Positions 18,776 through 24,026 of a stretch of 28,534 bases of DNA are shown one piece after another. The stretch covers positions 1 through 28,534 of the forward strand of contig JAHPZE010000041.1 in the NCBI GenBank assembly GCA_019058365.1. The letters run 5' to 3'. Each line of letters starts with the position of its first letter. Positions within the stretch are counted from its first letter, which is position 1. The translations under genes and the position numbers were made by a program. The notes under the pieces are model-generated. The model was not told the origin of the DNA and made no database searches. It saw only the letters and a program-made list of their open reading frames with translations. The DNA comes from Promethearchaeota archaeon. Lineage in GTDB: Archaea; Asgardarchaeota; Lokiarchaeia; Sigyniarchaeales; SOKP01.

Positions 18776-19969
18776 ATGTCTTATATTGATAAAGATAAAT
18801 TACGAGCCTTATTCAAGTGGTATATGCAAGAAGTAGGAGAAATCTTAGTTTCTGTTCTTGTAGTTGGGCGTGATGGGTTAGTAATTGATATTTTAACAAG
18901 AGAATCTGATAAATTAGAGGAAAAAAAGTTTATTGGAGCATTTAGTTCTTTGGTTGAATTAGTATTAAAAAAATTAACTCACGATTTTGATCTTGGAACT
19001 TTTGGTGCGGGAACTTTTGATACAGATAAATACAGATTCATTTTTTGTGAATCTGGATCTGAATATGTTTTAGTTTCTATACTCAATCATACTGCTTTAG
19101 TTGATGATGTATTTCCATATACTTATTTAACTGCTGATAAAGTATCAAGGATTATTGATGGAGAATTACCAGTTAGTCCTGTAATTCCGAAAGTAAAAAG
19201 AGATACTGAACTTGAAAAAATAAAGCGAAAAATGGAATATTACCAAAGTAAGCCTCACTCACCTGAGTATGTCTATAAACTTTCTCTGATTGGAGATAAT
19301 AAAGTTGGAAAAACCAGTTTGGCTCAAAGATACGTTCATGGAATATTTAAAACTGATTATAAAGCAACCATAGGTACTTATATTTCTAAGAAAGAATGTG
19401 AATTTAAAGAATTGGGGACTTCTGTCAGATTTATGATATGGGATTTAGCAGGACAAAGTCAATTTGAACGATTATGGCCAGATTATTTAACAGATTCTCG
19501 CGTAGGAATCATTGTTTTTGACATATCAAATAGAGCATCTTTTGAGCATGTCAAGAAATGGTATGATATCATCACAAGAGTCGCATTACCTCATATTGTT
19601 CTGATTCTGGTTGGTAATAAAGTTGATCTAAATGCTTCAAGAGTTGTTTCAGCTGAAGAAGGTATGGAACTAGCTAAAAAATTAAAGATCTATTATATGG
19701 AAACCTCAGCAAAAACAAATGAGAATATCGATGATGTTTTTGAGTGGATTGCTCTTCAAATCATTAATATGAATATTGAAGAAGTAAAGGATACATTATT
19801 CGACAAGCAAATGGAGGAAGGATCAAAATTTGTAATTTCAAGCCCTCAATTGAAAATATTGAATCAATATTTCACGAAACAATTAGATTATTGCATAGGA
19901 AAAGGTGATACCAAAGAAATTTTTAAACACTTAGATATTTTAAAAGCAATAGAAAAAAATAAGTTATAG
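18776..19969 (+). CDS. Roadblock/LC7-like domain fused to Rab-like small GTPase
   Basis: N-terminal SVLVVGRDGLVI (roadblock-like). G1 GDNKVGKTS, G2 YKATIG, G3 WDLAGQ, G4 GNKVD, G5 ETSAK. Confidence 0.92.
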   Translation: MSYIDKDKLRALFKWYMQEVGEILVSVLVVGRDGLVIDILTRESDKLEEKKFIGAFSSLVELVLKKLTHDFDLGTFGAGTFDTDKYRFIFCESGSEYVLVSILNHTALVDDVFPYTYLTADKVSRIIDGELPVSPVIPKVKRDTELEKIKRKMEYYQSKPHSPEYVYKLSLIGDNKVGKTSLAQRYVHGIFKTDYKATIGTYISKKECEFKELGTSVRFMIWDLAGQSQFERLWPDYLTDSRVGIIVFDISNRASFEHVKKWYDIITRVALPHIVLILVGNKVDLNASRVVSAEEGMELAKKLKIYYMETSAKTNENIDDVFEWIALQIINMNIEEVKDTLFDKQMEEGSKFVISSPQLKILNQYFTKQLDYCIGKGDTKEIFKHLDILKAIEKNKL

Positions 19970-19986
19970 AGTAATTTAGAAACATA

Positions 19987-22887
19987 TTAATTATTTATAT
20001 AAAGAGCGGGCTTGAACGGTTTTGCTCTTGTAGATCTTTGTTTTGGATCAAAATCGGAATTGATTACAATCAAGGAATTTACTCGTTTTTCTATATAGGA
20101 CTTATAATGATTAAGTAATTCAATTTCATCTACTTTTGGTAATTGTTTTTCCCATATCCGATCTTTTATTTGACTTTTTATAAAAGAGATAAGTTCTTTA
20201 TTAGATAATAATTCCCTTTCTTTTTGTATCTCAGAGATTATATCATCAAAATTATCTTTTTTTGATAATATCATATTTAATGCTTTATACTTCCATATAG
20301 GAGCCGTATATATATGTATTTCATCAGATTTCAATGATTTTACGATTTTCTTTATATTGAAAATATCCTCAATAACATTTGAGATATACTCAAATTCAAG
20401 TTCAAGGTTCGTATTAATATATTGTGTATTAAAGTCTCCCCAAATTATTTTTGAAATAAATCCTTCATTTCCGGCAATTTCCCATAATTCTTCACATAAA
20501 TGAGGCATTGTTAAGGAAAGTATTTTTAACCAATCTTTATAAATCAATTTAAAAACTATTAGAAAGTCATTTATGTCATCTGTATCCCTTGAAAATTCCT
20601 GTATTAGATTAAAAACCTCATAAAATGATGTTTGAAGATATCTCCTTATATTGTATTCTTCTAATGCCTCTTTAGCTTCAATAAATTTCTTAATAATTTT
20701 AGAGAGCATCACTTTTGAGTATTTAGAGTTAATATCTTCAAATTTAGCTTCAATATTTTTTGATTGCTTAATTCTATCATAATTGAAACTATAAAATTTG
20801 AATATGTGATTTTTAACAGTTTCTACCTCTTTTTCTCGAAAATCCATATACACACCGAAATCAGCACCGTGAGATATATAGAATCTAAACAAATCAGCAG
20901 AATAATTTTTTTTTATATCTGCAAGAGGAATCACATTTCCTTTTGATTTGCCCATTTTTTGTCCTTCTACATTTACTGGTTCGATTAAAGTAATTATTTT
21001 TGGCCAATGTTTCTCTGGGAAGATAGCAACATGATGGAATATATAAAAACTTAAATGATTTGATATGTGCATGATAGCTGTATGTCTATGATCAACTGGA
21101 TACCAGTATAGAAACTCCTTCTGCATTTCTTTAAGTAGTTCTTCTTCTATACTCGTCTGTTTTGCAAGTTTCTTAATATCTCCTTTCTCTAAGAATACAA
21201 AATCAAAGAATTCTGGAATTAGCTGATCTAATGCAATCTGATATTCCCTTATTTTATGCACAATAGTGTAGAATGCCATGTAAATTGTACTATCACTTAG
21301 GGATTCTATTATCCATTCTTTATTAAAGGGAAATTTCGTCCCTAGACCTCTTTTTCTTGCGCAGGGTCTTTTTTCAAGCCAATTAAAAATATTTTCAAAA
21401 TTTAATCGATATTTGTGAGGTATAATTTTCATGTCATTAAGGCACTTAAATGCTTTTTTCTTCCATTCTCCTGCATTAAAATTCAGAAACCACTGATCTT
21501 TTAAAATGGAAACGATAATGTTAGCTCCACATTTGCATTTAAGATTTTTAGTAACTGGAATAAATAATTTATCAGCTCTATTCTCTTCGATTAAATCTTC
21601 TGAAACTTGTTTAGCAGCATCACTAACCTTCATTCCTTGGTATTTACCACATTTATCATTAAGAAATCCATTATAAAATTCAGTTTTATAATTCTCACTT
21701 GTTGCTAAATCTAGTTTTTCTTTATCTATTTGAGATTCAACATCATATTTTTCACAATATATTTTTGCGGGAAAATCCTTGAACCCTTTTAATTCAATAA
21801 TTTGAATTGGATAAATTAATTCGATTTCTCGTTTATCTAAATTAAATTCTTCAATTAATTCTGTATCTTTTTGTAAATCAATTAAAGCTATATAATCATA
21901 AGGAGCATGAGCTGGAACTGAATAAACTACACCAGTAGCTGTAGCTGTATCAACAAAATCTCCGGGTAAAATTGGAATTTCTTTAATTCCATAAACATCC
22001 CTAGCCTTTTTTCCAATGATTTTACTTCCTTTAAACTTTTTTAATATTTCAATCTCTTTATTTTGATTTTTTAATATATGGGTTGCTTCCTCGGAAATAA
22101 ACCATATCTCCTCATTTAAAGATGCCTTAATATAATCTCCATTTGGCTTTATCCATATATTTGTAACTCCGTAGACTGTTTCTGGTCTTAATGTAGAAGC
22201 CACGAGAAAACCATCTTCAAAAGGGAATTTTATACAAATAAATTCATTAATATTAAGGTCTAACTCATCCCCACTATCAATATCGTCCTCGCCTACAGCA
22301 TTCTTATCTCGTGGACAATATAAAATTGGATATTCACCCTTTTCAATATATCCCTTTTCATTTAAATGATAATATTGCCATTCGATGAATTTATTATAGA
22401 TTTTATCTCCAGTTGTAAATTCTCTTCTCCAGTCCAAACTCATACCAATTGATTTAAAATCAATTTTAATAGTATTAGAAAAGTATTTTACAATATTCCA
22501 TGGATCTACAAAACTATCAACAATTTCATCTACTTTTTTTTGATCTTTAGTATGTAATGATACGTATTCTTTCATCCTAGTTATTTGTATTTGAACCCCT
22601 CTTTCTATAGAAGAAGAAATTGCTAAAACTGGAGTACCAGTTATATGAAATGCCATAGGATATAACACATTATATCCTTTCGCCCGATAATATCTTGCAA
22701 ATATATCTCCGTTAATAAAACTTCTTCCATGACCTATATGAGTAGGACCTGAGGCATATGGATAAGGAGAGGTAATAAAAATTTTCTTTCTTTTCTTATC
22801 TGGATTTGCTTCGAATATTTTTGCTTGCTCCCATCTATCTTGCCATTTCTTTTCAATTTCTAGTGGAATATACATTTCTTTTAACAC
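19987..22887 (-). CDS. leuS: Leucyl-tRNA synthetase (archaeal/eukaryal type)
   Basis: IEKKWQ..W, PYPYASGPTHIGH, HITGTP, DWRREFTT, TLRPET, TGVVYSVPAHAPYD, IESLSDSTIYMA, KMGKSKGN, C-terminal AKPFKPALYI. Start is GTG 22887 or ATG 22875. Confidence 0.97.
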   Translation of the reverse strand: MLKEMYIPLEIEKKWQDRWEQAKIFEANPDKKRKKIFITSPYPYASGPTHIGHGRSFINGDIFARYYRAKGYNVLYPMAFHITGTPVLAISSSIERGVQIQITRMKEYVSLHTKDQKKVDEIVDSFVDPWNIVKYFSNTIKIDFKSIGMSLDWRREFTTGDKIYNKFIEWQYYHLNEKGYIEKGEYPILYCPRDKNAVGEDDIDSGDELDLNINEFICIKFPFEDGFLVASTLRPETVYGVTNIWIKPNGDYIKASLNEEIWFISEEATHILKNQNKEIEILKKFKGSKIIGKKARDVYGIKEIPILPGDFVDTATATGVVYSVPAHAPYDYIALIDLQKDTELIEEFNLDKREIELIYPIQIIELKGFKDFPAKIYCEKYDVESQIDKEKLDLATSENYKTEFYNGFLNDKCGKYQGMKVSDAAKQVSEDLIEENRADKLFIPVTKNLKCKCGANIIVSILKDQWFLNFNAGEWKKKAFKCLNDMKIIPHKYRLNFENIFNWLEKRPCARKRGLGTKFPFNKEWIIESLSDSTIYMAFYTIVHKIREYQIALDQLIPEFFDFVFLEKGDIKKLAKQTSIEEELLKEMQKEFLYWYPVDHRHTAIMHISNHLSFYIFHHVAIFPEKHWPKIITLIEPVNVEGQKMGKSKGNVIPLADIKKNYSADLFRFYISHGADFGVYMDFREKEVETVKNHIFKFYSFNYDRIKQSKNIEAKFEDINSKYSKVMLSKIIKKFIEAKEALEEYNIRRYLQTSFYEVFNLIQEFSRDTDDINDFLIVFKLIYKDWLKILSLTMPHLCEELWEIAGNEGFISKIIWGDFNTQYINTNLELEFEYISNVIEDIFNIKKIVKSLKSDEIHIYTAPIWKYKALNMILSKKDNFDDIISEIQKERELLSNKELISFIKSQIKDRIWEKQLPKVDEIELLNHYKSYIEKRVNSLIVINSDFDPKQRSTRAKPFKPALYINN

Positions 22888-22942
22888 ATTCTTGGTTTTT
22901 TCTGCTTTACTTCAAGTTTAATTCTTATTTGAGTAAATAACC

Positions 22943-23051
22943 ACCCATGATCTCTTTCAGTTAAATTTACCAACCAAGCGAACAAATCCGTGGAAAAAGT
23001 AAAAGAGAAAGAGCATAGGGATTTGTTTCGCTCAAGGTAATAATAAAACTG
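22943..23051 (-). promoter_or_regulatory. Candidate attenuator RNA structure in the leuS 5' leader
   Basis: Core stem AGCGA(A)ACAAAUCC (23032-23019)/GGAUUUGUUCGCU (22989-22977), extended by UUACC/GGUAA and CAGUU/AACUG. The loop holds a pyrimidine tract. Alternative helix CCUAUG-CUCUUUC/GAAAGAG-AU-CAUGGG. Confidence 0.65.
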
Positions 23052-23091
23052 CGAGTAAATCGACTGATAATACTTTTTCTATTAAATTCAT
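23032..23091 (-). CDS. Putative leuS leader peptide MNLIEKVLSVDLLAVLLLP (7 Leu of 19)
   Basis: ATG AAT TTA ATA GAA AAA GTA TTA TCA GTC GAT TTA CTC GCA GTT TTA TTA TTA CCT TGA; about 29 nt after a TATA box and about 145 nt before leuS. Confidence 0.7.
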   Translation of the reverse strand: MNLIEKVLSVDLLAVLLLP

Positions 23092-23119
23092 CTTCAACGC
23101 AGTCTTATTTGAAATCATT

Positions 23120-23127
23120 CTTATAAA
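23120..23127 (-). promoter_or_regulatory. Archaeal TATA box (TTTATAAG) for the leader-leuS transcript
   Basis: Consensus-like TTTATAA whose spacing would place the TSS a few nt before the leader ATG. The AT-rich context lowers specificity. Confidence 0.5.
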
Positions 23128-23405
23128 GAGTATATACATTTTTATATTAAAATATTTCCAAGTCCTGATATTATAATATATTACTCTAAATTAAACGAAG
23201 ATACATATTGCAGTTAAGTCTAATGCAATAACTCGTTTTTAGAAAATAATGTAAATTGTTAAATATATAAAGGTTCCACTTTTTATTTTACTCTTCCATT
23301 AATTACATAAAATAAAGAGTAAATAATCTTTCTCCAAAAAAATAATACGAATCTAAAATTCATGACTATATAATCCTTTTTAATAAAATTCAAATTTTAT
23401 TACTT

Positions 23406-24026
23406 ATGTCAATAACGAAAAAAAATGCTGAAATCAAAGCAGAAAATATTGTAAGGAGAGTATTAGAAGAAAAAAATTATCTTTCTAAAGTGTTAAAAGG
23501 AATTCTGGCTAAAGAAGATTCAGTGAGATATCCAAATGCGATCGCTTTAGAAATTCTAAGTAAGGAGAATCCTAAAATTATTTATCCTGAATGGAATTTT
23601 TTTGTTAATTTACTCAAAAGCAAAAATGCTTATCATAAATCGATTGTAATCTCTACAATTTCAAATTTAACTATAATAGATGAAAAAAATAGATTTGAAG
23701 AAATTTTTGAAGATTTTTTTAGCCTTATTGATGATAAAAGTGTTATTGTTTCTAGAAAGTTAGCAATTTATGCAGGGAGAATTGCTACTGCTAAACTCTC
23801 ATTAAAATCTAAAATAACGGCAGTTTTGCTAAGTATTGATGATACTCAACATAGTCCAAGTCGCAAAGATTTAATAAAAGGAGACATTATTGAAAGTTTT
23901 AGTGAATATTTTGAAGATATTAAGGATAAAAAAACAATTATCGAATTTGTCAAAAAACAATTAGATAGTAGTAGTCCAAGTACAGTGAAGAAAGCTAAAG
24001 AATTTCTCTTAAAATGGGAAAAATAA
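23406..24026 (+). CDS. HEAT/ARM-like alpha-solenoid hypothetical protein
   Basis: Repeated HEAT-like units: DSVRYPNAIALEILS, LIDDKSVIVSRKLA, QLDSSSPSTVKKAKEFL. Confidence 0.7.
   Translation: MSITKKNAEIKAENIVRRVLEEKNYLSKVLKGILAKEDSVRYPNAIALEILSKENPKIIYPEWNFFVNLLKSKNAYHKSIVISTISNLTIIDEKNRFEEIFEDFFSLIDDKSVIVSRKLAIYAGRIATAKLSLKSKITAVLLSIDDTQHSPSRKDLIKGDIIESFSEYFEDIKDKKTIIEFVKKQLDSSSPSTVKKAKEFLLKWEK

Follow-up and report, generated by a model that had tools for sequence, protein, structure and literature searches.

The window analysed here, a 28,534-nucleotide stretch of DNA from a Promethearchaeota archaeon, carries upstream of the leucyl-tRNA synthetase gene (leuS) what comparative evidence indicates is a real, conserved regulatory leader, in which a short Leu-rich ORF runs into a set of competing RNA helices. 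The leader probably acts as an attenuator sensing branched-chain amino-acid supply, in this case leucine, and controls the downstream gene through the position of the ribosome. A more specific proposal, which we advance tentatively, as plausible rather than probable, is that a ribosome on the leaderless ORF gates cleavage by the archaeal termination factor aCPSF1/FttA, the module having been copied within one Asgard family and retuned among Leu, Ile and Val to form a branched-chain regulon without a protein regulator. The original prediction, a Leu-codon leader peptide and RNA structure controlling leuS, passed the comparative test and gained paralogous copies rich in Ile, Val or Leu, including copies before ilvE, but it had misplaced the start codon and the TATA box.

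The minus-strand frame ending at the TGA at 23034-23032 is present as claimed, and the 19 codons read from 23091 do contain seven Leu codons, five of them among the last eight. The ATG at 23091, formerly taken as the start, is codon 10 of the conserved ORF (Table 1) and is an ATG in just 15 of 26 same-genus leuS loci and 20 of all 129 copies. The conserved start at ATG 23118 lies 27 nt, or nine codons, further upstream and is kept in all 26 same-genus loci (compared over their upstream regions; 69-100% protein identity). Similarly, the TATA box proposed at 23127-23120 would fall 2-9 nt upstream of the conserved ATG and occurs in 15 of the 26 loci, the conserved TATA-like box being located about 33 nt upstream of the leader ATG. 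Across all copies, the TATA-like word mostly starts 29-34 nt before the upstream ORF (uORF) ATG, and a Shine-Dalgarno (SD)-like word occurs in only 3 of 129. Given the spacing from TATA box to transcript start that is generally known for archaeal promoters, the box would place the mRNA start a few bases before ATG 23118, which suggests that the leader mRNA is near-leaderless. The in-frame ATG at 23139 was rejected as the main start, as it is unconserved and falls between the TATA box and the expected transcript start. Because uORFs were chosen near the 5′ end of the covariance model, the count of 128 in 129 that start with ATG partly reflects selection. Noise in a genome-wide TATA-to-ATG profile prevented an estimate of how common leaderless mRNAs are. 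Within the Leu box, Leu25-27 lie 2-4 codons and Leu21-22 lie 7-8 codons before the stop. Upstream ORFs of 18-35 codons with at least five Leu among the last ten precede 17 of the 3172 genes of the source genome, so the ORF by itself is modestly unusual, and the case is built on conservation, covariation and class-specific content.

Table 1. Features of the leuS leader region, in coordinates of the window
Feature	Position	Strand	Description	Basis
Promoter	23142..23156	-	BRE/TATA-like; TATA-like box 23152-23142	Box matched in 25/26 same-genus loci
Leader ORF	23032..23118	-	28 codons, 8 Leu, probably near-leaderless; the originally predicted 19-codon ORF is its 3′ part	Sequence and comparison
P1 5′ arm	23098..23109	-	Codons 4-7; predicted to pair with 23053-23042 in the Leu box	Partner energies
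Leu box	23038..23058	-	Codons 21-27 (LLAVLLL), proposed stall sites	Codon content, fold computations
P1 3′ arm	23042..23053	-	Codons 23-26	Partner energies
P3 5′ arm	23019..23033	-	Overlaps the stop codon; partly common to P4	Covariation, pairing
P4 5′ strand	23007..23023	-	End of P3 5′ arm plus first half of U-tract	Covariation, pairing
U-tract	22994..23012	-	U-rich, G-poor, in P3 loop; candidate aCPSF1/FttA site; 5′ half paired in P4	Pairing, register fit
P3 3′ arm	22976..22989	-		Covariation, pairing
P4 3′ strand	22939..22958	-	Competes with P3 for the common arm	Covariation, pairing
leuS	19987..22875	-	Archaeal-type leucyl-tRNA synthetase; likely start ATG 22875 (ORF caller: GTG 22887)	TIGR00395, orthologues

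The downstream gene is indeed a leucyl-tRNA synthetase (LeuRS) of archaeal type (935 bits for TIGR00395; cut-off 648.5). Orthologues begin at the methionine of the MY..P..IEKKW motif, which makes ATG 22875 rather than GTG 22887 the likely start; the ORF does lie upstream of leuS as predicted, with a gap of about 156 nt in place of the claimed 145 nt or so. The source genome has two LeuRS genes, the second being of bacterial type (TIGR00396, 950 bits; G000:C35:276509-279298 on the plus strand, locus L199) and without the leader element, an arrangement compatible with an inducible second enzyme. Calls of tRNA-Leu(UAA) exist in an incomplete tRNA scan of 30 genes. On the plus strand of the window, a gene at 18776-19969 encodes a protein of 397 residues that carries a small GTPase domain (TIGR00231) at its C-terminus, and converges on the leuS stop, 18 nt away, while a 206-residue gene at 23406-24026, divergent from the leader, has no Pfam or NCBIfam match.

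A conserved short Leu-cluster ORF before leuS orthologues had been set as a check on the original prediction, and it was found in 26 of 26 same-genus loci. Over a wider range, covered by a DNA search and then a covariance model, the element is present in one Promethearchaeia (Lokiarchaeia) family (105 of 135 genomes, 10 of 13 genera), but it was detected in none of 125 genomes from other families in a draw across the phylum and in none of 19 from other families of the same order, searches in which the model may miss diverged versions. In a neighbouring family, it is absent from all four leuS loci compared. The neighbouring-family leuS loci L028, L029 and L030 share a different conserved motif about 200-250 nt upstream, without a Leu-rich ORF. 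The sequence records that passed the model are mostly Promethearchaeota or Promethearchaeia by title; bacterial pattern matches were dismissed as chance, none having passed the model, and one model match (L167) has no ORF. The expectation of cognate-rich leaders before other aminoacyl-tRNA synthetase and biosynthesis genes was not borne out, none being seen at 16 other synthetase loci, ilvC and ilvD of the source genome, where some starts are mis-called.

Several properties of the leader ORF argue for its translation. Its length varies from 20 to 32 codons, and the ATG and the 3′ run stay in frame through indels. The ratio pN/pS is 0.45-0.68, with third positions the most variable, and 14.7% of column-resampled sequences contain a stop codon against 0 of 29 observed; as the related sequences are not independent, the resampling and pN/pS results are supportive rather than proof. 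Stops in the +1 frame (69 of 69) were not counted as evidence, since an ATG followed by A gives TGA and the pattern is thus largely trivial. From these features, we infer that the leader ORF is translated.

Predicted peptide content tracks the downstream gene. Among the 129 copies, the downstream gene is an archaeal-type leuS in 67, a bacterial-type leuS (TIGR00396) in 4, a conserved 45-68-residue protein in 31, a fusion of FrhB and TrmB (frhB-trmB) in 18, an acyl-CoA dehydrogenase-ETF operon in 3 and ilvE in 2 (TIGR01123 above cut-off), the remainder being 3 divergent copies and 1 at a contig end; these target classes represent a handful of independent events. Per last ten codons, leaders contain 6.0 Leu and 0.03 Ile before archaeal leuS (n=67), 6.8 Leu before bacterial leuS (n=4), 4.7 Ile before frhB-trmB (n=18), 6.0 Val before acyl-CoA dehydrogenase-ETF (n=3), and 4.0 Leu plus 4.6 Val before the small-protein gene. 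The acyl-CoA dehydrogenase-ETF and ilvE leaders are characterised by Val, Ile and Ala. The original prediction carried the caveat that TTA is common and of low complexity in AT-rich DNA. TTA is the commonest Leu codon (5.0%), and the Leu bias nonetheless holds in three tests. First, Phe codons account for only 7 of about 1010 NUN codons in the leaders, though TTT makes up 4.3% of genome codons. Second, outside the codons paired in P1, Leu reaches 60% in leuS leaders (proteome 9.8%, shuffled 16%), Ile reaches 55% in frhB-trmB leaders, and Phe falls to 1% against 15% in shuffles; P1 pairing itself accounts for about 4 of the last 12 codons, a point against the favoured explanation. Third, in a tree of the post-stop scaffold, the 4 bacterial-leuS leaders are sister to 4 Val-rich small-protein leaders (support 100/97) and end in poly-Leu despite that Val-rich sister group. 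In this tree, built from few columns of the post-stop part alone and unrooted, so that the direction of change is not given, one predicted content change accompanies one target change.

Two of the target families are uncharacterised. The Ile-rich leaders precede a fusion of an F420 hydrogenase beta-like protein with a ferredoxin domain (FrhB) to a TrmB helix-turn-helix (L110:612-2060:+ and 17 more), possibly a redox-sensing regulator. The Val/Leu-rich leaders precede the unannotated 45-68-residue family, often ending in IAW (L139:2524-2658:-, L176:377-511:+ and 18 more), which has no significant Pfam match and no atlas match; in the loci examined, its gene often converges on an LL-DAP-aminotransferase-like gene.

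The predicted RNA comprises three helices, P1, P3 and P4. P1 joins the 5′ part of the ORF to the Leu box, and its own partner scores -12.5 kcal/mol, against -7.7 for partners from other classes and -5.0 for shuffled ones; it may be a pause hairpin or one that blocks re-initiation. In 69 aligned copies, 89% of the cells in P3 and the P4 core are paired, with 60 double-sided changes compared with 23 in shuffles, and pairing drops to 38-54% when registers are slid. Each arm also prefers its own partner to foreign ones (P1 in 113, P3 in 123 and P4 in 119 of 125 copies). In 118 of 125 copies, P4 shares 3 nt or more with the P3 arm, so that the modelled P3 and P4 are mutually exclusive, and a ribosome at the stop would cover one arm. 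The P3 loop is about 27 nt long (57% U, 4% G), P3 has a stability of -17 to -20 kcal/mol and P4 of about -20 to -25 kcal/mol, and a variable A-rich stretch of 41-72 nt separates the 3′ end of P4 from the leuS start. Whole-leader folding energy is no better than that of shuffles (z -0.11), and RNAalifold recovers just a 7-pair P4 core. Within this genus, a classical 1:2 helix between the Leu box and the P3 arm pairs well, but it was not retained as part of the core, being unconserved across 125 copies (own -5.5 versus shuffled -5.4 kcal/mol). A scan for intrinsic terminators (a G+C hairpin then a U-run) returned 0 sites, and U makes up about 3 of the 10 nt that follow P4; a T-box riboswitch was rejected, as Rfam gives no match in the window and the UGGU after P3 is unconserved; and SD sequestration by P4 was rejected because of its distance from the leuS start. 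Lacking a terminator hairpin, a 1:2 helix, SD sequestration and an Rfam family, the element was not assigned to any of the attenuator classes that it resembles.

In the favoured mechanism, the leader ORF would be translated while RNA polymerase is still within the leader. When Leu-tRNA is plentiful, the ribosome would reach the stop codon and cover the P3 arm, leaving the U-tract single-stranded, and aCPSF1/FttA would cleave there and end transcription. When Leu-tRNA is scarce, the ribosome would stall 2-8 codons short of the stop, within the Leu box, and P3 would close around the U-tract; polymerase would then continue into leuS, with P4 later replacing P3 and pairing part of the U-tract. The archaeal ribosome footprint extends 15-16 nt from the P-site codon (PMC7261190), and with this footprint masked, P3 forms with a mean probability of 0.10 when the ribosome sits on the stop, 0.59 when it is two codons short of the stop and 0.93 when it is four short (0.00, 0.61 and 0.94 for the window's own sequence). 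Together with the Leu positions, these values indicate that a Leu stall would permit P3 and that a ribosome at the stop would prevent it, which matches the geometry of bacterial antiterminators. The source genome encodes aCPSF1/FttA (887 bits against a cut-off of 580). The factor requires U-tracts rather than hairpins, and one Lokiarchaeota aCPSF1 cooperates with U-tracts (PMC8716108). The register of FttA (U-rich at -36..-30, U at -23; PMC11616081) finds its best match in the P3 loop, with 0.72 U and 0.70 U in an AT-rich background, and predicts cleavage near 22995. Ribosome geometry, the need of aCPSF1 for U-tracts and this register together favour cleavage in fed cells and read-through in starved ones. 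The direction of the switch is tentatively read as starvation-ON, and taken alone, the wiring in which aCPSF1 executes it is a credible proposal that stops a little short of likely. With FttA in its best-fitting register, the polymerase would still enclose the P3 3′ arm, so that P3 could not pre-empt cleavage and could only narrow the time available for it. P3 also forms without a ribosome (0.93), and an untranslated leader would thus be read through, which sets the element apart from classical attenuators. Nearly all modelled states favour P4 at equilibrium, which would require a kinetic switch.

The same sensor could be wired otherwise, which we consider unlikely: P3, with the U-tract exposed in its loop, would be the terminating state, and a ribosome close to the stop would permit the masking P4, or a coupled ribosome would exclude FttA, so that, depending on timing, the genes could be ON when the amino acid is plentiful. 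P4 is the more stable helix and pairs the first half of the U-tract, and two of the targets, ilvE and acyl-CoA dehydrogenase-ETF, often have catabolic roles. A model in which the ribosome sterically excludes FttA has been proposed (PMC11616081). Against this wiring, cognate codons extend as far as 14 codons upstream of the stop, and P3 stays intact (0.93) when the ribosome stalls at least 4 codons before it. In addition, archaeal-type LeuRS was not found with the query used in four of the genomes with bacterial-leuS leaders, where the leader thus precedes the only LeuRS found, and shutting this gene down in leucine starvation would make little sense. Rather less probable is a post-transcriptional switch acting on mRNA stability, through endonucleolytic cleavage at the U-tract, or on leuS translation initiation. 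It would suit the formation of P4 on the longer RNA only, the SD-like GGUG/GGAG words in the P4 3′ strand, and the precedent of mycobacterial leaderless poly-Cys ORFs, which act on translation initiation (10.1101/834739), but P4 is set well back from the leuS start by variable A-rich sequence, and the SD-like words follow from complementarity to the common arm.

It is improbable that the element is simply a conserved structured RNA binding a protein or ligand, with the ORF incidental or translated to remodel the RNA whatever its codons. The codons for NKTA and AVLL do form the two P1 arms, and TTA is abundant, but the enrichment holds outside P1 and shifts between Leu, Ile and Val according to the downstream gene, Phe codons are scarce in spite of the frequency of TTT, and the frame is maintained through indels. 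A divergent subclass favours this alternative and counts against the best explanation: it keeps the RNA scaffold, while the branched-chain run is weak or shifted. It precedes a different small ORF and has a short Val/Ile run only, or reads the P1 arm in another frame. The source genome contains such a copy (G000:C43, ATG 65263 on the minus strand; L200/L114) with a 27-codon ORF lacking a clear branched-chain run and with P3- and P4-like helices; it scores below the model threshold and lies before a small ORF converging on a class I aminotransferase. Leaders L213-L226 of this subclass have conserved His, Trp and Pro residues, one branch being frame-shifted relative to P1, and may represent arrest peptides built on the common RNA scaffold. 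Genomes G148 and G127 have two copies about 630 nt apart. Least probable of all, the 28-residue product would be a functional small hydrophobic protein or a sequence-acting arrest peptide, in line with its basic N-terminus and hydrophobic C-terminus and with the Trp, His and Pro of the divergent subclass, which are reminiscent of arrest peptides; its middle is freely variable (pN/pS 0.68), its stop is tied to P3, and leuS leaders exclude Ile and Phe, a restriction that a membrane helix would have no need of.

A 2021 account stated that no transcription attenuation or antitermination mechanism was known in archaea (PMC8448881), and a 2025 commentary called direct evidence for archaeal transcription-translation coupling scarce (PMC13681488). 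Our literature search, of incomplete coverage, turned up no subsequent description of leader-peptide attenuation in an archaeon. A two-codon Trp leader has reportedly been proposed for trpY in Methanothermobacter. The element would offer a direct way of asking whether the position of the ribosome governs premature termination in archaea, in the lineage closest to eukaryotes, and it links uncharacterised genes (frhB-trmB and the 45-68-residue protein) to branched-chain amino-acid status. At about 200 nt, and with more than 100 natural variants with compensatory changes, it suits the existing aCPSF1 reporter systems in Methanococcus or Thermococcus.

Leader-peptide transcription attenuators are familiar from enterobacteria, in the form of leuL, ilvL, trpL and, before pheST, pheM. 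In contrast to these, the archaeal leader has no hairpin-plus-U-run terminator, its U-tract lying inside the P3 loop; its Leu box and P3 arm show no conserved pairing, and a probably near-leaderless ORF is combined with a TATA promoter in an archaeal host. Factor-dependent attenuation is exemplified by tna and Rho in E. coli. As in that case and in U-tract termination by aCPSF1/FttA, the factor would load on pyrimidine-rich RNA just past the leader stop; in the studies of that termination (PMC8716108, PMC11616081), the action of aCPSF1 is at gene ends and near promoters, not under the control of a leader ORF as proposed here. The short cognate-codon uORF, the competing helices and the blocking of an upstream arm by a ribosome at the stop are shared with leuL, ilvL, trpL and pheM and with the attenuators predicted for Streptomyces leuS and trpS (PMC1262725), and a synthetase gene is likewise the target in pheM-pheST and the Streptomyces cases. 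The actinobacterial LEU element before leuA resembles it in having a Leu-rich leader ORF and alternative helices or a pseudoknot, but the Leu codons of that element pair with the leuA SD, reportedly without effect on regulation, whereas here they pair with codons 4-7 at the 5′ end of the ORF (PMC1262725). In the mycobacterial poly-Cys ORFs, a stalled ribosome frees a sequestered ribosome-binding site, while here no helix reaches the downstream start; the two systems would be alike in placing leaderless sensor ORFs at several loci to give one amino-acid response, an arrangement termed the 'ribulon' in mycobacteria (10.1101/834739).
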